Shown here piece after piece: positions 6,098 to 44,784 of a DNA stretch of 64,000 nucleotides. The notes under the pieces are model-generated. The model was given only the letters and a program-made list of their open reading frames with translations. It was not told where the DNA came from and did no database searches. Numbering within the stretch: the stretch's first letter is position 1; each line of letters opens with the position of its first letter. Origin of the DNA: Acutalibacteraceae bacterium (lineage in GTDB: Bacteria; Bacillota; Clostridia; Oscillospirales; Acutalibacteraceae). The stretch lies in NCBI GenBank assembly GCA_045592705.1, contig JAZNVG010000029.1:3704-67703 (forward strand), in the 5' to 3' direction. Made by a program: the position numbers and the translations under genes.

Positions 6098-9000
6098 ATG
6101 GTATACAGAGTTTATGTCGAAAAAAAGCAGGGCCTTGCCAATGAGGCAAACTCGCTTTGCAATGATATAAAAACATTGCTTCAGATTGAAAAGCTTGAGT
6201 CTCTTCGTCTGCTCAACAGGTATGATGTTGAAAATATTGACAGCGAGCTTTTTGATTACAGTGTTTCAACCGTTTTTTCAGAGCCTCAGCTTGACAATGT
6301 AACATATTCACTCGGCGACACCTCCGACTGCACGGTGTTTGCCGTTGAATATCTTCCCGGTCAGTTTGACCAGAGAGCGGACTCTGCGGCACAGTGTATC
6401 CAGATTATCTCTCAGGAGGAGCGTCCTCTTGTAAGAACTGCAAGAATTTATATGCTTTACGGCGACCTCACTGCTGAGGACATTGCCGCAATCAAAAAAT
6501 ATGTTATTAACCCCGTTGAAAGCCGCGAGGCAACTCTTGACGAATTCAAGACTCTCGTCACAGAGTATGACATTCCCGAAAGTGTTGAAACACTTGACGG
6601 ATTCATTTCTCTTGATTCCGACGGTCTTGCAGACTTTGTAAAGAAATACGGCCTTGCAATGGATTGCGATGACATTGCTTTTTGTCAGAGCTATTTCAAG
6701 AAAGAGGGCAGGGAGCCGACAATTACCGAAATCAGAATGATTGACACATACTGGTCGGACCATTGCCGTCATACAACTTTCCTTACAACAATTGACAGCG
6801 TTAAGTTCGAAGACGAGCTTCTCGAAAAGACTTATAACGATTATCTTAACGCACGCAAGGCAATCAACCGCACAAAGCCGATTAACCTTATGGATGTTGC
6901 AACTGTCTGCACCAGATACCTTAAGGCAAACGGCAAGCTTCCGAGAATTGATGAGTCAGAAGAAATCAACGCCTGCACAGTTAAAATCAAGGTTAATGTT
7001 GAGGGTGAAGAGCAGGATTGGCTGCTTCTCTTCAAGAACGAAACACATAACCATCCCACCGAAATTGAGCCCTTCGGCGGTGCCGCAACCTGTATCGGCG
7101 GCGCTATCCGTGACCCGCTTTCGGGCAGAGCTTATGTTTACGGTGCAATGCGCGTAACGGGTGCTGCAAATCCGCTTGTTCCCGTTAAAGATACAATCAA
7201 GGGCAAACTGCCCCAGCGTAAGATTGTCACCACCGCTGCGGCAGGTTACAGCTCATACGGCAACCAGATCGGTCTTGCAACGGGTCAGGTTGATGAGCTT
7301 TATCACGACGGTTATGCCGCAAAGCGTATGGAAATCGGCGCTGTTGTCGGTGCCGCTCCCGCTGAAAACGTAAGACGAGAATGTCCCGTTGACGGAGACA
7401 TAGTTATTCTCCTCGGCGGACGCACAGGCCGCGACGGTTGCGGCGGTGCTACCGGTTCATCAAAGTCCCACACTCTCGATTCTCTCGAATCCTGCGGCGC
7501 AGAGGTGCAGAAGGGTAATGCACCCGAGGAAAGAAAGCTTCAGCGTCTTTTCAGAAATAAAGAAGCATCACGCCTTATCAAGCGTTGTAACGACTTCGGT
7601 GCCGGCGGGGTTTCCGTTGCCATCGGTGAGCTTGCAGACGGTCTTGAAATCGACCTTAATGCTGTCCCCAAGAAGTACGAAGGTCTTGACGGCACAGAGC
7701 TTGCAATCAGCGAATCACAGGAGAGAATGGCTGTTGTTGTTGCCGCAAGTGATGTTGAGCGCTTCAAAGAACTTGCAGATTCCGAAAACCTTGAGGCAAC
7801 CGTTGTTGCCGAGGTTAAGGCAGAGCCCAGACTTCGTATGAAGTGGAACGGCAAGTACATTGTTGATATTTCCAGAGAATTCCTTAACTCAAACGGTGCT
7901 GAAAAGCACATTGATATTACTCCCGCTGCTCCCGAATGTTATAAAAAGGCTGTCGGCACAGACTTTGAAAAAGAGCTTGTTGCACTTGCAGATGACCTCA
8001 ATGTCTGCTCAAAGCGCGGTCTTTCCGAGCGTTTCGACTCAACAATCGGCGCAGGCACGGTTATGATGCCTTTCGGCGGTAAGAATCAGTTGACACCCTC
8101 TCAGGCGATGGTTAACAAGGTTTCCGTTGAAAAGAAGCATACGGACACCTGCTCGCTTATGGCTTGGGGCTACAATCCCTTCATTGCTGAAAAGAGCCCC
8201 TACCACAGCGCATATCTTGCTGTTGTTGAATCCGTATCAAAGCTTATTGCTACGGGCGCGGATTTCACGGATGTTTATCTGACCTTCCAGGTATACTTTG
8301 AAAAACCGATGCGTGACGGCAAACGTTGGGGCAAGCCCCTTGCAGCCCTTCTCGGTGCATTCAAAGCACAGATGGATTTTGAAATCGCATCAATCGGCGG
8401 TAAGGATTCAATGAGCGGAACTTTCGAGGATATTGATGTTCCTCCCACGCTTGTTTCCTTTGCCGTTACAACCGATGATGTCAAGAATATTGTTACTCCC
8501 GAATTCAAAGCGGCGGGCAACAAGGTTGTTCTTCTCAAACCCGAGTACGACAGCAACCATCTTCCCGTTGCCGAATCCGTTAAGGCAAACTTTGCAGTTG
8601 TCAGCAAGCTTGTCCGTGAGGGTAAGGTGCTTTCTGCATACACCCCCGGATACGGCGGCATTGCCGAGGCAATAATGAAGATGTGCTTCGGTAACGATAT
8701 CGGCTTTGATTTTGCTGACGGTTTCTCAATGGAAGAAATTTTCGGCTATTCATACGGCTCATTCATCCTTGAACTTGCGGACAATACAGATGTCGGCGTT
8801 GTTCTCGGTTCCACAACAAACGAATTGGCAATCAAATTCGGCGGCACATCTGTTTGTCTCGGTAAACTGCTTGACACTTACGAAAACAAGCTTGAACCCA
8901 TTTTTAGCTGCAATATTGAGCAGGCTCACGGTGAAATTCCCGCGTTTGAATTCAAAGCAAACGAGTGGAGTTCACCCGTTATCAAGACCGCTCAGCCCAA

Positions 9001-21817: not shown

Positions 21818-23515
21818 TTATCCGCTGACTTTACCGCCCCATTCGACAACGGTGAATCCGTTTCTTTCGTGAGTCGGCAACTCTTGTTCTTTAACTCCGA
21901 CGGGTGACTCAAGAGGAGTGTAAACCATAAAAATTCTTATCACCGTGTCGGGCTTGGGGTGAATGTCAAGCTCTGCCTTTTCAGTGTATTCTTCACCGAC
22001 AAAAGTGATTAAATTGTAGCTGTTCTTTGTAAGTACAGGCACCCAGAATTCCATAAAATCAGCTCTCTCTTTTTCATTTAACCCCATATAAGTCAGTTTT
22101 TCTGCAAGGAATTCTTTCGTGTCGATTCCCTTAACGCAGAAACCTTCGTTTCGGTCTGTTTTTATATCAAGTTCCGCTTCCCAGAAAAGATATTCGTAAA
22201 CTGTCAGGTCGTTGTTTACAATTGTGCCGTCGGGGAATACAGTGACCTGCCAACCGCTGTTATATAAGGGCTCGCTTACGGTCAGCTTTCCGTCAAGGTT
22301 GAGCTTTACGCTGACATTTGTTTTTTCTTCGGGATAAAGATAAATTACCGGTTTGTAGGCGACCATCGGATCGGGTTCAAAATTGCTTTGAGCAACTGAA
22401 TAAGCGGTTACGGTCTGCTTGTTGTCGCCTGTGTTTTTTATTGACTCGGATTTATATTTGACATCAACAAAATCGCCGACTTTGAAGTTTTCCGACAGGT
22501 CAAAAATAATTGTGTATTCAAGAGGGGAGGGCCAAGGGTGAGTGCCCTTGAAATAGCCGTTGCCGATTTCCGTAATTTCAACCGTCAGCATATCGCTGTC
22601 TGCAAAGTTACTGCTTTGCAGCGGCTCAGAGCAGATAACGGCATCATCAACATTCATTACTGCCGTTTCATAATCACCCGCGGGGATTGTCACGATAATT
22701 GTCCACATTGCAATGTCGCAGGTGCCGACCTCGGGCACGATTCTTGCAACATCAACATTGATTTCTTTTCCGTTTAACCACACGCTTTCAATGTAATGGC
22801 TGTTACTGCCGCTCGGCTCGTAAAGATTGACAAAAACAAGGGCGTTTTTCTTGAAAAAGCTTTCGTCACAGTGCGAAACATAATCTTTCACACCTTTTCC
22901 GCCGTCGGCGGCATTAAGCGAAAAACCGCAGATGTGGTCGTCAAAATGTGCGTTAAGCTCCGCAGCGCTCTGAACAATCTGACAGCTGTTTTCCCATATT
23001 CCGTCACAGTCTTCAATGGCAACGCGCACGGTGTCAGAAGAAAATTTGAGTGTTTTTATCGGTGAATTTGTTGTTGACACGGTACTTGTGGTGTTTGTGG
23101 TGCTTGAGATATTTTCCTTTTCCGTGTTGCGTGCACGGTAAAGGGTGAATGTGCCGTCAGTTCCTTTTACCGCAACGCATTCGCTCTGATTCTTTACGGA
23201 ATAAATCTCTGTGCCGACGGGCAGAAAGCTTGCGCTGAAATCCTGTGATACATAGTTTTCGTATTCGCTTTCTTTCATTTCGGACGGCACTTGCACGGCT
23301 ACCGTGCCGAGCAGGTCACCGATTAAATCTTCACTGATGTCGGCATCTTCGACGTTGTTGTTGTACTCGTAGCTCACACCGTCAACCTTTACAAAATCAA
23401 CCCATTCAACAATAACAACAGAGTCAATAAACGGCAGGTCGATGCCTTTGCTGCAACCTGAAAAGGCACACAGTGCAAAAACAAGGGCAAGCGCGGCACA
23501 TAATAATCTTTTCAT
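21818..23515 (-). CDS. Multidomain lipoprotein with PrcB-like domain and C-terminal KPVIYLYP domain
   Basis: Lipobox FSGC; Thr-rich linker; SGSNSHYIESV..GTCDIAMW (PrcB-like); KPVIYLYP...YLFWE...DFMEFW...VVEWGG; start refined to MKRLL after GGAGGG. Confidence 0.8.
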   Translation of the reverse strand: MKRLLCAALALVFALCAFSGCSKGIDLPFIDSVVIVEWVDFVKVDGVSYEYNNNVEDADISEDLIGDLLGTVAVQVPSEMKESEYENYVSQDFSASFLPVGTEIYSVKNQSECVAVKGTDGTFTLYRARNTEKENISSTTNTTSTVSTTNSPIKTLKFSSDTVRVAIEDCDGIWENSCQIVQSAAELNAHFDDHICGFSLNAADGGKGVKDYVSHCDESFFKKNALVFVNLYEPSGSNSHYIESVWLNGKEINVDVARIVPEVGTCDIAMWTIIVTIPAGDYETAVMNVDDAVICSEPLQSSNFADSDMLTVEITEIGNGYFKGTHPWPSPLEYTIIFDLSENFKVGDFVDVKYKSESIKNTGDNKQTVTAYSVAQSNFEPDPMVAYKPVIYLYPEEKTNVSVKLNLDGKLTVSEPLYNSGWQVTVFPDGTIVNNDLTVYEYLFWEAELDIKTDRNEGFCVKGIDTKEFLAEKLTYMGLNEKERADFMEFWVPVLTKNSYNLITFVGEEYTEKAELDIHPKPDTVIRIFMVYTPLESPVGVKEQELPTHERNGFTVVEWGGKVSG

Positions 23516-23517
23516 TT

Positions 23518-24774
23518 TTATCCCTCCATGGTTGTAACAACACCGATGAATATCGGCAGACGGTTTTGCGTGTCGATTATTGCACATACAAAGGGACGGT
23601 TGAGAATTACCTCTTTTGCGACAACTTCTGCGGATTTTTCATCGGCACCGACAAGGGTGATTGCGCCTGCTTTTGTGCCGTGCTCATCAACGCAGATATA
23701 TGTTTTATGAATTACCGTGCTGATGTAGCATGGGTTTTCTGCCATCCTTGAAAAATCGGCAAGATTGCCGTCAAAAGCGCTCGGCATTCCCATATTTTTT
23801 AATCCGTCGGTAAGCTCAATGTCAAAGTCAAACTCGAACTTCGGCATCGCCGTGTGAACGGTTTCGTTACTGCCGTTTTCAAGAATGTTCAGCAGTTTTT
23901 CACCGCTGAGTGTTGCGACAAAATCGTAAATATTCACGTTTTCATCGGGCAAAAGTGCGGCAAAGGCATAGTCGCCGCCTTTGTAATTCTTCATAAAGCC
24001 CTGTGCGTTGTCACAGCTTAAATAAATCTGTTCTTCCGAGTGCAGAAATTCAACATCCTGCCTTCTGCCTTTTGCGTCTGTGAATACGCGGTTAAAGACC
24101 TCTGACCTTTCGTAAGTTTTTTCCCATTCACCGTCAAAAGCAAGACAGTTGATAAGATAAAGAATTGTGTTAGGGTTGATTGAGTCAATGATTGAGTCAA
24201 TCATTCCGTCCGTACCTTTGTCAACCCATTTGTTTATTTTTTTGACAGTTGAGTCATCAAACGGCTCTTTGTAGGCCGCCGCACCGTAGTAATCGGCATT
24301 TATCTGCAAAAAGTCAGGCTTTACCTTTGCAAAATCCTGTCTGAACCAGATTGAATTTGCAATTGAAAATTTTACCTTTTCACTGTTCGGTAAAGATTTC
24401 TGATACGTGTACAGATATTCGTTGAGTGCATTGATTTCAATACCGCCGAGGGCACTTTCCATTTCGGCAAGTGTCTGAGAGTCGGCACCGTTTGCGGTCA
24501 TTGCAAGGGCAAGCATTACCGAAAGGGGAGAAACAAGTGTGCACTTTTCCCGGGAAACGCTTTCATTTAACAGATTTGCCGTAAAGGTGCAGTAGGCCGT
24601 TTTGAATAACTCGTCGGGAGCTTTTTCGTTTACACTTTGCGCAGTTATGTTTTCCATAAGGTCGGCCGCCTGCGCGGTGGGCAAAACGGCGGTGCAGGCA
24701 GAAAGATTAAAGATAAGGGAAAAAGCAAGGATTAAGCAGATAACCGAAAGGAAAAATCTTTTCATTTTGTTCAC
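23518..24774 (-). CDS. Serpin (serine protease inhibitor) lipoprotein
   Basis: Lipobox LSAC; LVSPLSV, ANSIW, INKWV, NCLAFDGEW, MPKFE, VDEHGTKAGA hinge, LNRPF. Confidence 0.95.
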   Translation of the reverse strand: MNKMKRFFLSVICLILAFSLIFNLSACTAVLPTAQAADLMENITAQSVNEKAPDELFKTAYCTFTANLLNESVSREKCTLVSPLSVMLALAMTANGADSQTLAEMESALGGIEINALNEYLYTYQKSLPNSEKVKFSIANSIWFRQDFAKVKPDFLQINADYYGAAAYKEPFDDSTVKKINKWVDKGTDGMIDSIIDSINPNTILYLINCLAFDGEWEKTYERSEVFNRVFTDAKGRRQDVEFLHSEEQIYLSCDNAQGFMKNYKGGDYAFAALLPDENVNIYDFVATLSGEKLLNILENGSNETVHTAMPKFEFDFDIELTDGLKNMGMPSAFDGNLADFSRMAENPCYISTVIHKTYICVDEHGTKAGAITLVGADEKSAEVVAKEVILNRPFVCAIIDTQNRLPIFIGVVTTMEG

Positions 24775-24777
24775 TCC

Positions 24778-25440
24778 TTAAGCCAATATTAAGCTTTTGA
24801 TAATTTCGTTGTTTTCGGGACCGATGCCGTACCATTCGTTGCCGAAGCACACAGCGCCGTCCGTCCAGAAATAAATATCGCCCGTTTTTATGAAGGTAAT
24901 GATGTAATAATCGTCGGGTGCCTGAAAATCGAGCATGATTTTCTCTTCGGGGTCAAGTGCCGACAGCAGCTTTTCGTAATCGGTGTAAAGCTCTTTTATA
25001 AAATCGGGGTAGTTGTTGCGTGTTACGTTTGCAACTGCTTCTGATGCGTTTCCGGAAAGAACGGTTGCTTGCGACTTTGCGGTTGTTGCAGGAATTGAAT
25101 CCAAAATGTCGCCGCCCGAAGCCGCATAATTGTCAAGACCGTCAACCGAGTCCGTGTCGATGACATCGTTGTTGCTGTCAGAAAAATCGCCGACGGTTGT
25201 GACGACTGTTGTCGAAACGTCTGTTGCTGATTGCCCGATGTTGACCAATTCATTTTCAGCTTCTGCCATATCAGCGGATTTCTCAGCGAAAAAGCCGGAA
25301 GAAAGTGCGGATATGCCGATAACAACAACTGCACACAGCGGCACAAGCGTTGCAAAAGCGGTGATTTGCTTTTTGCGCTGCTTTACGGCAATGTTGCGTT
25401 TTTTGTAAATGCTTTCAAGGTATTCATCTCGGTTTTTCAT
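24778..25440 (-). CDS. Probable anti-sigma factor (single TM, extracytoplasmic C-terminus)
   Basis: Basic N-terminus, one hydrophobic helix, Ser/Thr/Asp-rich exterior; overlaps the end of the ECF sigma gene. Confidence 0.65.
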   Translation of the reverse strand: MKNRDEYLESIYKKRNIAVKQRKKQITAFATLVPLCAVVVIGISALSSGFFAEKSADMAEAENELVNIGQSATDVSTTVVTTVGDFSDSNNDVIDTDSVDGLDNYAASGGDILDSIPATTAKSQATVLSGNASEAVANVTRNNYPDFIKELYTDYEKLLSALDPEEKIMLDFQAPDDYYIITFIKTGDIYFWTDGAVCFGNEWYGIGPENNEIIKSLILA

Positions 25441-25981
25441 CTGCATATCCCTCCTTTTCCATTTTTGTTTTTAGGGCTTGCTTTGCGCGGTAAGCAAGGT
25501 TTTCAATTTGCTTTTTGTTTTTTTTCATTACTTTTGCGGTGTCTTCGTTTGACATTTCTTCGAAATAGATAAGATGTAAAACGGTCTTGTAATCGTCGTT
25601 AAGAGTGTTGAGACAGCGGTGCAACGCACGCATTTTCTCCTGCTTTAAAAACTGTTCTTCGGTGCTTTGTGTGCCTGAATAATTTTCCGCAGACCCGTAG
25701 TCTGTTTCGGGGTGACGAGCCAAGCGGCGCACTGCATCAAGCGCTTTGTGGCGCGCAACGGCAAACAGGTATGTTTTAAAAGAGGCTTTGAAATTGTAGC
25801 GGTGCCTGCGCATAAGCACCTCAACAAAAACATCCTCTGAAATATCCTCGGCAAGCGAGTAGTTTTTAACATATCTGTTGATAAAAAATATTAAATTGTC
25901 GGCATAGAGGTCAACAATTTCCTCAAATGCCTTTTGGTCGCCGTCAAGAAAACGGCGGTAAAGCAGGGTACCCTTATCCAT
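25424..25981 (-). CDS. ECF-type RNA polymerase sigma-70 factor
   Basis: AEDISEDVF, FKTYLFAVARHKALD, region 4 (LIYFEEMSNEDTAKVM...LAYRAK); start refined to MDKG after GGAGG. Confidence 0.93.
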   Translation of the reverse strand: MDKGTLLYRRFLDGDQKAFEEIVDLYADNLIFFINRYVKNYSLAEDISEDVFVEVLMRRHRYNFKASFKTYLFAVARHKALDAVRRLARHPETDYGSAENYSGTQSTEEQFLKQEKMRALHRCLNTLNDDYKTVLHLIYFEEMSNEDTAKVMKKNKKQIENLAYRAKQALKTKMEKEGYADEKPR

Positions 25982-26010
25982 AAAAAGCCTCCGCGTCAAG
26001 CTTTCATCTT

Positions 26011-26040
26011 TTAGTCGCATAAAAAGTGAAAAACACTCAC
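26011..26040 (-). promoter_or_regulatory. Candidate ECF-type autoregulatory promoter
   Basis: Minus strand TGAGTG-16 nt T-rich spacer-CGACTAA, similar to ECF TGAAAC-16-CGTC/CGAC architecture. Confidence 0.45.
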
Positions 26041-26091
26041 TTAAAAATAAAATATTTCAGTTAAATTTTAAACCCTGCCGTAAAAAAAGTC

Positions 26092-26117
26092 AACGGAGCC
26101 TCCGCAGAGACTCCGTT
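26092..26117 (-). terminator. Terminator after mazF
   Basis: AACGGAG...CTCCGTT stem with an adjacent A7 run on the + strand. Confidence 0.7.
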
Positions 26118-26127
26118 ATAATGTAAG

Positions 26128-26481
26128 TTATACAAGTGCCGTAATACCCAAGCTGACCGAAAGCGCACGGTCAACGCGTGTCATATCCGTGTCGTTGAGG
26201 TAGCCCATTTTTTCTTTAAGCCGCTTTTTGTCAAGTGTTCTTACCTGCTCAAGCAATACAATGGAATCTTTGGCAAGGCCGCAACCGTCCGCATTTACAC
26301 GGATGTGTGTGGGCATACTTGTTTTGTATTTCTGGCTTGTTATTGCCGCGGCAATTACCGTGGGGCTGAATTTGTTGCCGACATCATTTTGCACAATCAG
26401 CACAGGCCTTGTGCCGCCTTGCTCCGAACCGACCACTGGGCTCAGGTCGGCATAATAAATTTCTCCCCGTCTGACATTCAT
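26128..26481 (-). CDS. mazF: MazF/PemK (EndoA/NdoA) endoribonuclease toxin
   Basis: [47 protein letters not shown]; true start at 26481 after GGGGAG. Confidence 0.96.
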
Positions 26482-26616
26482 TTTATCACTCCCCGGTGAA
26501 TTTGTTTTCAAAAATATTTTTGACAGTAAAAAGCAAAATAAACATACCTTTTTAAAAATCGGGGAGGAATTTTTAAAAGGCTTACATTTAAAGTATATTC
26601 GGCTTTTTAAAAAATG

Positions 26617-43284: not shown

Positions 43285-44784
43285 ATGTATAGATTAATCT
43301 CGCTTGTGCTTTCAGCTGTTATGGTGTTTGCGGGCACTGCCGTTAATACGGTCGATTCTGTGCTTGATTCCGTGTCAGAAATGCTTTTCGGTCTTCCTTT
43401 TACTGATTATGCGGTTGAAAGTGATTTTCTTGATTCGGCTGATGACAGCAATATTGAAAAACTTTCAGGCAGCTTGGGGTATGCCCGAGACACGGTTATT
43501 GTTTTTCTTAAAAGTGATGTCGGATTTAAAGAAAAACGTGCGGTTTTTGAAGAATATGCTGACGGCGGAATTGTTGTCGGTTGGTATGCCCCTGCAAGTC
43601 TTTATGTTATAAAATATCCGTTTGCAGATTATAACACTTTAATTGCAAAGAGTGAAAAACTGAGCGAAAACGAAAATGTCGCTTATGCCGGTCTCAGTTA
43701 TGCAAGGCATTATGAAAGCCAGTGGACTCCCAATGACCCCTTTGACCCCGAAGAAGAAAACATCTGGGATGAAGCATCGCCCGACGGTGCAAATTGGTGG
43801 CTTGAGGCAATTAATGCAAGACAGGCTTGGGATTATTCTCAATATTTCAAGAAAGTCAGACTCGGTGTTGTTGACAGCGGTTTTTATACCGAACAGCCCG
43901 ATTTGAAAGGGAAAATATTCTTCCCCAATGCACTTTCGGCATGGTTGAATTCCTGGAATTATCACGGCTCACACGTTGCGGGAATTATTGCCGCACAGGC
44001 TGATAACGGTGTCGGTATTGCGGGTGTCTGTCAGACGGCAGAACTTGTCTGTTGTGACTGGCAACCTTCGGCTTTACAGTTCTGGATTGAAGACCTTGCC
44101 ATTTTCTTCTCCATCGGCAAAGTCATTAAATCGGGCGCAAAAGCTGTTAATCTTTCCTTCGGCCTTGTGGTGGACGGTGAAAAAGCACCGTGGTATTTTG
44201 TAAGTTCCGACGCAACGATTTATTCGATTTATATGGCATCTTTGCTTGATAAAGGCTATGATTTTGTTGTGGTTCAGTCTGCCGGTAACGGTAACGCTGA
44301 CGGTTTGCCGATTGACTCTGTGAACAACGGCACTTTTGCCAGCATAACGCCCGAAACCGTAACGAATTACGGTTATGAGCACATTCCGACAAGTGAGCTG
44401 CTCGACCGCATTATTATTGTTGCGGCGGCTGAAAATCTTGGTGAAGGCAATTACCGCCTTTCTTCTTATTCAAACACGGGCAGATATGTTTCAATTGCCG
44501 CACCCGGTGAAAATATTTACAGCTGTGTCAATGAAGATGATGCTTATTATTATCTTTCGGGCACATCAATGGCGGCGCCGGTTGTAACGGGTGTCTGCGG
44601 GCTTGTGTGGTCGGTCAATCCGTCATTTACGGGCAAGCAGGTCAAAGAAATTGTCTGCTCAAGCACAAAAGATGTTGCCCAAAAATATGTCGGTGAGGGT
44701 TATTATACCTCTGTTGAATACCGCGATATTCCGATGGTAAATGCTCAGCTTGCCGTTGAAAAAGCAATAGAATATATTCATTAA
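43285..44784 (+). CDS. Secreted S8 (subtilisin-like) serine peptidase
   Basis: Signal peptide; catalytic triad VVDSG, HGSHVAG, GTSMAAP; oxyanion SAGN. Confidence 0.94.
   Translation: MYRLISLVLSAVMVFAGTAVNTVDSVLDSVSEMLFGLPFTDYAVESDFLDSADDSNIEKLSGSLGYARDTVIVFLKSDVGFKEKRAVFEEYADGGIVVGWYAPASLYVIKYPFADYNTLIAKSEKLSENENVAYAGLSYARHYESQWTPNDPFDPEEENIWDEASPDGANWWLEAINARQAWDYSQYFKKVRLGVVDSGFYTEQPDLKGKIFFPNALSAWLNSWNYHGSHVAGIIAAQADNGVGIAGVCQTAELVCCDWQPSALQFWIEDLAIFFSIGKVIKSGAKAVNLSFGLVVDGEKAPWYFVSSDATIYSIYMASLLDKGYDFVVVQSAGNGNADGLPIDSVNNGTFASITPETVTNYGYEHIPTSELLDRIIIVAAAENLGEGNYRLSSYSNTGRYVSIAAPGENIYSCVNEDDAYYYLSGTSMAAPVVTGVCGLVWSVNPSFTGKQVKEIVCSSTKDVAQKYVGEGYYTSVEYRDIPMVNAQLAVEKAIEYIH

Follow-up and report, generated by a model that had tools for sequence, protein, structure and literature searches.

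Within a 64,000-nucleotide (nt) stretch of the genome of an Acutalibacteraceae bacterium, here called the window (assembly GCA_045592705.1, contig JAZNVG010000029.1, positions 3,704 to 67,703), the minus strand holds four co-directional, closely packed open reading frames (ORFs), and it is this apparent operon, a candidate protease-sensing unit, that the present study deals with. The genes encode, in order of transcription, an extracytoplasmic function (ECF) sigma factor of 185 amino acids (aa; 25424-25981), an anti-sigma-like membrane protein of 220 aa (24778-25440), a lipoprotein serpin of 415 aa with the lipobox LSAC (23518-24765), and a second lipoprotein with the lipobox FSGC (21818-23515), recognized as an ORF with a signal peptide and composed of four domains, which are referred to below as N, M, OB and C (the last also as KPVIYLYP, after its conserved motif).

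The sigma and anti-sigma genes share 17 nt (23 nt if the longest sigma ORF is taken), and the serpin gene is separated from the fourth gene by 2 nt, with GGAGGG ahead of the ATG of the latter. The start of the sigma factor was taken at MDKGT, which is preceded by GGAGG 7 nt upstream; use of the longer ORF, reaching 26020, as the start is unlikely. The first-pass annotation of this DNA had described four contiguous minus-strand genes that overlap or are spaced by 2-3 nt. All four ORFs are present, and the sigma/anti-sigma overlap and the 2-nt gap stand; however, the gap between the anti-sigma and serpin genes is 12 nt, with AAGGAG ahead of the serpin ATG, and not 3 nt, because the GTG sits within the ribosome-binding site. 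Judged from their spacing, the junctions of the operon are too tight for separate internal promoters.

An ECF-type promoter, composed of GTGAGTG (-35), a 16-nt spacer (N16) and CGACTA(A) (-10), lies on the minus strand at 26011-26040, about 30 nt ahead of the sigma start codon. Upstream of the sigma genes of related loci, the shared motif is GTGAGWGTTTT-N11-GCGAMTAA, set in variable flanks at 36-58 nt from the start codon. In 58 of 59 related loci, GAG and CGA are 18 nt apart, and the G/A/G and C/G/A positions are invariant. Throughout the 2.22-Mb genome of this organism, the strict and the loose forms of the pattern have one match each, both at the operon promoter. A further match to a looser pattern, on contig 51, was rejected as a promoter, as it is antisense within a gene and has no ORF downstream. 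Since the ECF motif is unique in the genome, the regulon of the sigma factor is probably one operon; most likely the factor serves only its own operon, with positive autoregulation. An anti-sigma gene overlapping the sigma gene and a bipartite promoter of fixed spacing, both traits of the ECF group, are recognized in silico. A sigma-A-type promoter, TTGACT-17-TAAAAT, was found by a promoter scan (10 of 12 matches) farther upstream on the same strand, at 26065-26093, where it overlaps the strong terminator that ends a mazF-like gene upstream of the operon. Several orthologous loci have TTGACA...TATAAT-like elements upstream of the ECF promoter.

The operon is not peculiar to this organism. Serpins are found in 62 of the 132 genomes of the genus, and we compared 57 of the genus serpin loci together with their flanks. 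A sigma ortholog (46-63% identity) lies upstream and on the same strand in 55 of these 57, the remaining two loci ending at contig ends. Each of the 59 loci with the sigma gene has an anti-sigma-type gene (about 205-330 aa) immediately behind it, and one or two serpins come next. More than 55 species keep this order, with serpin identities as low as 31%. In all, more than 500 relatives of the sigma factor were found. When 63 loci of sigma relatives with at least 2.5 kb of downstream sequence were inspected, a serpin was found in 52 and an M domain in 23; three had M or C without a serpin, and eight had none of the three. The same gene order is recognized in other families of the Oscillospirales (L113, L117, L119 and L128) and in a metagenome-assembled genome (MAG) of the Anaerovoracaceae (L246). 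Across the whole order, serpins occur in 183 of 401 genomes, many of them with no sigma link within 1.5 kb. The related contigs are from MAGs labelled Acutalibacteraceae, Oscillospiraceae or Clostridia, and the labels of many of these give as their source the gut of goat, sheep, deer or buffalo, or faeces. By these counts, the sigma/anti-sigma/serpin arrangement is far beyond chance. Synteny of the ECF, serpin and KPVIYLYP genes had been put forward for checking at the outset; it holds for the sigma factor, anti-sigma factor and serpin across the genus and beyond, whereas the full KPVIYLYP lipoprotein is part of the operon in just two species, the present one and a close relative (95% identity), although M and C domains do recur. 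In five serpin-less loci (L174, L175, L178, L185 and L189), a conserved lipoprotein of about 325 aa (about 6320-7340) comes after the sigma and anti-sigma genes, and it matched none of the domain models used.

The sigma factor has sigma-2 and sigma-4 domains only (Pfam Sigma70_r2, E=1e-11; Sigma70_r4_2, E=2e-10), as in ECF (group 4) factors, and its NCBIfam match to TIGR02937 (sigma70-ECF, E=9e-26) reaches 90 bits against a cut-off of 43. Orthologs standing in front of serpins are 46-92% identical to it. The protein encoded by the overlapping gene starts with some 26 basic, conserved residues, which are followed by a single transmembrane helix and, after a low-complexity linker, by a small ectodomain at the C-terminus. 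Conservation among its 59 orthologs is confined to the first 45-90 residues, and the N-terminal motif MKxREEYxxSIYxKRDxxxKKRKK and the transmembrane helix are retained in all 59 loci. It is a predicted single-pass protein with its N-terminus inside, its conserved part cytoplasmic and its gene right after that of the sigma factor, as expected of an anti-sigma factor. A RasP-like M50 protease, of the site-2 type, is encoded in the genome.

The third gene encodes the only serpin of this genome. Its signal peptide ends in ...NLSAC, as in lipoproteins, and PF00079 matches at E=1e-81 over model positions 3-368 of 370, corresponding to a full-length serpin fold. The nearest solved relative is tengpin of Thermoanaerobacter tengcongensis (2PEE/2VH4, E=2e-115; also 2PEF), likewise a full-length bacterial serpin, with which the reactive loop aligns without gaps. 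The reactive centre loop is encoded at 23608-23685 (minus strand), and its hinge, EHGTKAGAITLV, includes E-H-G-T-K-A-G-A-I, with Gly at P15, Thr at P14 and small residues at P12-P9; by this hinge, the serpin belongs to the inhibitory type. When residues are counted from P17, P1 is predicted to be Lys377 and P1' to be Ser, which would suggest trypsin-like targets. The equal count in tengpin yields P1 Ala, and tengpin differs further in that the present serpin has a lipid anchor. Siropin and miropin, both serpins of the gut, count with tengpin among the nearest known serpins. Among the orthologs, the predicted P1 is K, M, S, E, G or T, a variation as wide as expected of an inhibitor that tracks its target proteases. 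In many serpins of the genus (L068, L064, L097 and L077; 538-563 aa), an N-terminal extension of about 180 residues is found between the lipobox and the serpin fold, and its small Cys-containing domain has the motif ...DC..(D/N)Y...G..YYYH..CG....

Three other elements of the first-pass annotation agree with these results. The ECF sigma factor with a single-transmembrane partner is recovered through the Sigma70_r2 and Sigma70_r4_2 matches and the one predicted helix, the lipid-anchored serpin through its LSAC lipobox, PF00079 match and inhibitory-type hinge, and the ECF-like promoter through its fixed spacing and its single occurrence in the genome.

The fourth gene encodes a mosaic lipoprotein, with a signal peptide ending in ...AFSGC, for which no Pfam or NCBIfam match was found over its full length. 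Its N part (23081-23515), comprising the signal peptide, the lipobox, the N domain and a Ser/Thr linker, has N-domain relatives only in one close species. The M domain (22616-23080), with conserved SGS..H and GT.D..W motifs, belongs to a family of at least 963 representative clusters in an exhaustive HMMER search, for which there is no Pfam model; a word-indexed homology search with the M-domain piece alone gave no matches, and a fold search with its AlphaFold2 (AF2) model (predicted local distance difference test, pLDDT, 85) found no match in the PDB. The OB-fold domain (22361-22615) is YobA/DUF3221-like: its AF2 model (pLDDT 93) was aligned by Foldseek with OB folds, including Bacillus subtilis YobA (2jqo) at probability 1.0 over 97 columns, with a template-modelling score of 0.53 on the target, which is agreement at the level of the fold, and relatives show DUF3221 Pfam matches near the threshold. 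For the C domain (KPVIYLYP...EWGG; 21818-22360 with the stop codon), there are more than 2288 homologs, with 37 columns invariant, but no Pfam family, and its model (pLDDT 93) found no PDB match beyond the OB part. All four parts are on the minus strand.

The fourth protein had earlier been labelled PrcB. That label is not sustained: PrcB_C (PF14343) has no match up to E 10 in the fourth protein, none in the whole genome and none in 100 M-domain relatives, so that membership, being below every Pfam threshold, was rejected. What there is amounts to a weak, co-linear remote similarity. Comparison of M with PrcB_C by hhalign gave a probability of 17-30% (P=3e-4 to 5.5e-4, against P=0.7 for a reversed control), and a hidden Markov model of M detected 8 of 28 true PrcB_C proteins at E<0.002, the best at E=1.5e-6. 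PrcB of the Treponema denticola dentilisin complex is also a lipoprotein with a small beta-rich domain, which aligns co-linearly with M at low significance; however, no protease genes of the prcA-prtP type adjoin the present operon, and the M family has invariant motifs of its own. The PrcB label should be replaced by that of an uncharacterised M domain, remotely PrcB_C-like.

A shared neighbourhood was looked for around stand-alone M-domain proteins, and none was found. The KPVIYLYP domain as a constant partner of serpins was rejected, as it stands in unrelated contexts in G040, G042 and G046. Some M- and KPVIYLYP-domain relatives (P0121, P0002 and others) carry dockerin or Big_14 domains, and some are tandem M arrays; the dockerin and Big_14 relatives point to cellulosome-type or other cell-surface display. 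Cellulosomal serpins are known.

M and C domains also occur fused to, or in place of, the other components of the system. M forms the ectodomain of the same anti-sigma type in L017, a species without a serpin at the syntenic site, and also in classical zf-HC2 anti-sigma factors (for instance P0342) whose genes adjoin and come after an ECF sigma gene; it is the C-terminal domain of serpin lipoproteins of 560-565 aa (L123:1045-2727 and L140:1036-2733), and it is present as additional genes inside many such operons. The C domain ends the ectodomain of an anti-sigma factor with the same type of N-terminus in L208:5539-6741, and in L119 a C-only lipoprotein comes right after the serpin. Furthermore, in L114:1498-3439 and L111:1492-2886, a short cytoplasmic tail and one transmembrane helix are joined to a full serpin behind an ECF sigma gene; in L114 the sigma gene overlaps the gene for the transmembrane-anchored serpin, and L111 was judged by its architecture. 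The L114 type thus has the serpin as the anti-sigma ectodomain, in contrast to the present locus, which has separate genes for the two, a lipid-anchored serpin and an additional fourth gene. Such fusions are an argument for a common pathway in which the serpin, M and C domains work with the anti-sigma factor. As for the fourth gene, its M and KPVIYLYP domains probably serve as additional modules that interact with proteases or bind a signal. Elsewhere, both domains take the place of the ectodomain in this and other anti-sigma factors, and M is also fused to serpins.

SigW-RsiW (with PrsW and RasP) and SigV-RsiV (with lysozyme, signal peptidase and RasP) are ECF systems of Firmicutes that are controlled by regulated proteolysis. 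The present pair resembles them in the gene for a single-pass anti-sigma factor just downstream, in autoregulation through an ECF promoter and in the expected order of a site-1 cleavage followed by a RasP-type site-2 cleavage. It differs from them in having no zf-HC2, RsiW or RsiV match, in a cytoplasmic part of some 26 residues and in its serpin cargo. We know of no demonstrated precedent for a site-1 cut made by a foreign protease.

The closest functional parallel that we considered is in another phylum. The serpin operon of Bifidobacterium breve is induced by proteases via a two-component system (PMC8012564, PMC8201313). In strain UCC2003, as here, a gut commensal has a serpin with an adjacent dedicated signalling system, and a protective role has been proposed there. 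However, the signalling proteins are a histidine kinase and a response regulator in B. breve and an ECF sigma/anti-sigma pair here, there is no M/C lipoprotein partner in B. breve, and induction was shown there, while the present system is known from its sequence. Serpins of gut Firmicutes, the siropins, inhibit host proteases of the elastase type (PMC5127057), and sigma-factor control is not mentioned in that paper. Our full-text literature searches found no paper linking ECF sigma factors with serpins, and the main text of the ECF re-classification paper does not mention serpins. The first-pass annotation knew of no description of such a circuit. This agrees with our searches as regards the ECF-serpin wiring, on which we found no publication, but the idea of a protease-induced serpin is itself known from B. 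breve (PMC8012564). ECF signalling with a serpin as its output is, by its gene content, a new variant.

We think it somewhat probable that the operon is a self-contained unit of extracytoplasmic signalling and response, which senses proteases and is closed by negative feedback. Its two parts differ in strength: comparative evidence gives good support to the predicted ECF control of the serpin operon, whereas protease activity is a plausible, and the most likely, signal. In the proposed mechanism, a basal sigma-A promoter would underlie the ECF-driven autoregulation, and as long as the system rests, the sigma factor would be kept at the membrane by the short, basic helix at the N-terminus of the membrane protein. 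A signal from outside the cytoplasm, serine-protease activity at the membrane surface being the likeliest, would lead to loss of the ectodomain, whereupon a RasP-type site-2 protease would free the sigma factor. The operon would then be induced, the serpin, with its predicted P1 Lys, and the lipoprotein would build up on the outer face of the membrane, and trapping of the protease would remove the signal, giving negative feedback.

The same wiring might instead answer a signal other than proteases, such as cell-wall damage, antimicrobial peptides, bile or lysozyme, with the serpin as part of a general host-adaptation response. Most characterised ECF systems of Firmicutes respond to cell-envelope stress, the anti-sigma ectodomains are highly variable, some close sigma/anti-sigma pairs have no serpin, and the serpin of Bifidobacterium longum is under the control of sugar, not protease (PMC8012564). 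We nevertheless consider this explanation unlikely, though with an appreciable chance of being right, because the sole predicted target operon of the sigma factor has a protease inhibitor as its constant cargo, and because related anti-sigma factors have a serpin as their ectodomain, for which it is difficult to account if the signal is anything but a protease. Those same fusions (with a serpin in L114 and L111, and with M or C elsewhere) could mean that proteases are sensed indirectly, the serpin or the M/C lipoprotein serving as a co-receptor whose conformational change or complex is read by the anti-sigma ectodomain; in the present operon these are separate proteins on the same face of the membrane. 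Such indirect sensing seems to us rather improbable, as the small C-terminal ectodomain of this anti-sigma factor is private to two species, and it would leave a loop-like juxtamembrane segment, described below, unexplained.

Another explanation is that the module restrains or stabilises surface subtilases of the bacterium itself, the sigma factor answering stress from secretion or self-proteolysis. The genome has four S8 subtilase genes, one of them in the window at 43849-44682 (plus strand), some 18 kb from the operon; in Treponema, the subtilase PrtP has as its partner PrcB (PMC8167434), which M remotely resembles through PrcB_C; and dockerins are found in some relatives of the M and C domains. 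However, with the reference set used, no locus examined has a protease gene within or beside the operon, the predicted P1 Lys suits trypsin-like enzymes better than subtilisin, and the wide variation of P1 among species recalls an arms race against proteases of foreign origin, so that we regard this explanation as very unlikely. Mere chance adjacency, with the serpin and lipoprotein expressed independently of the sigma factor, is hardly credible in view of the 12- and 2-nt gaps with overlapping ribosome-binding sites and of an order kept in more than 55 species while serpin identity drops to 31%.

The juxtamembrane segment AEKSADMAEAE (25255-25287, minus strand) forms the first extracytoplasmic residues of the anti-sigma factor and shares EKSA with the serpin loop DEK/SAEVV around P1 (the slash following the predicted P1). 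A sister clade pairs a juxtamembrane SMK(D/N)AMPAEQP with a similar loop, KSA(A)MPVE(Q/R)P, and in L233, KKSAEAEV resembles the loop KTSAEVIM. A clade-level permutation over 15 clades gave p of about 0.004, with the signal coming from two related clades. The likeness was noticed post hoc and is treated here as a hypothesis, not as evidence of mechanism; as a general rule, juxtamembrane mimicry of the reactive loop was rejected, since it is confined to two or three related clades. One may suppose that the anti-sigma factor carries, close to the outer side of the membrane, a short copy of the serpin loop (EK/SA), so that the target protease of the serpin would itself make the site-1 cut and release the sigma factor, and that the M and KPVIYLYP domains would be hitherto unrecognised protease-interacting modules, used either as sensor heads of anti-sigma factors or as induced surface shields. 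We put this forward as a doubtful proposal.

Several observations weigh against a protease-sensing circuit with negative feedback, which we continue to favour. The anti-sigma-like protein has no Pfam or NCBIfam match up to E 10, and no domain of the zf-HC2/ZAS, RsiW, RskA or RsiV type, so that its assignment rests on position, topology and the pattern of conservation; its cytoplasmic part is unusually short. Its ectodomains vary strongly between ortholog clades, which fits poorly with one shared ligand, and close relatives of the sigma/anti-sigma pair occur without any serpin in L174, L175, L178, L185 and G002. The predicted P1 Lys377 was derived by counting alone. No loop-like juxtamembrane segment was found in 13 clades, and where present, the putative bait stands only a few residues beyond the membrane, where access by a protease may be hard. 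At the downstream boundary of the operon, finally, a terminator was looked for in the interval between the fourth gene and the following MATE gene, which has its own promoter, and none was found, so that transcription may read through into the MATE gene.

On the other side of the operon, the mazF-like gene mentioned above (26128-26484, minus strand) encodes a toxin of the MazF/PemK type (PF02452, E=9e-35). No antitoxin gene stands alongside it, the gap upstream of it being occupied by a terminator and a promoter. The gene order nnr, small lipoprotein, mazF, sigma factor is preserved in two further species of the genus.

Gut bacteria meet proteases from the pancreas, from neutrophils and from microbes, and bacterial serpins, among them the siropins and that of B. 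longum, are under study as modulators of gut inflammation. The present locus places a dedicated, predicted ECF switch before a serpin, an arrangement conserved in dozens of uncultured species of the Acutalibacteraceae and in their relatives, and its wiring suggests a way in which gut microbes may sense and neutralise proteases. It also ties two large uncharacterised families of extracytoplasmic domains, M (at least 963 clusters) and KPVIYLYP (more than 2000 proteins), neither of which has a Pfam model or a solved relative, to the biology of proteases. The sigma factor, the anti-sigma factor and one promoter would make up a portable system with which to ask whether commensals sense protease activity directly. 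If the loop-copy proposal is true, it and the relatives in which serpin and anti-sigma factor are fused would represent a family of ECF switches that sense proteases and are widespread among gut Clostridia.

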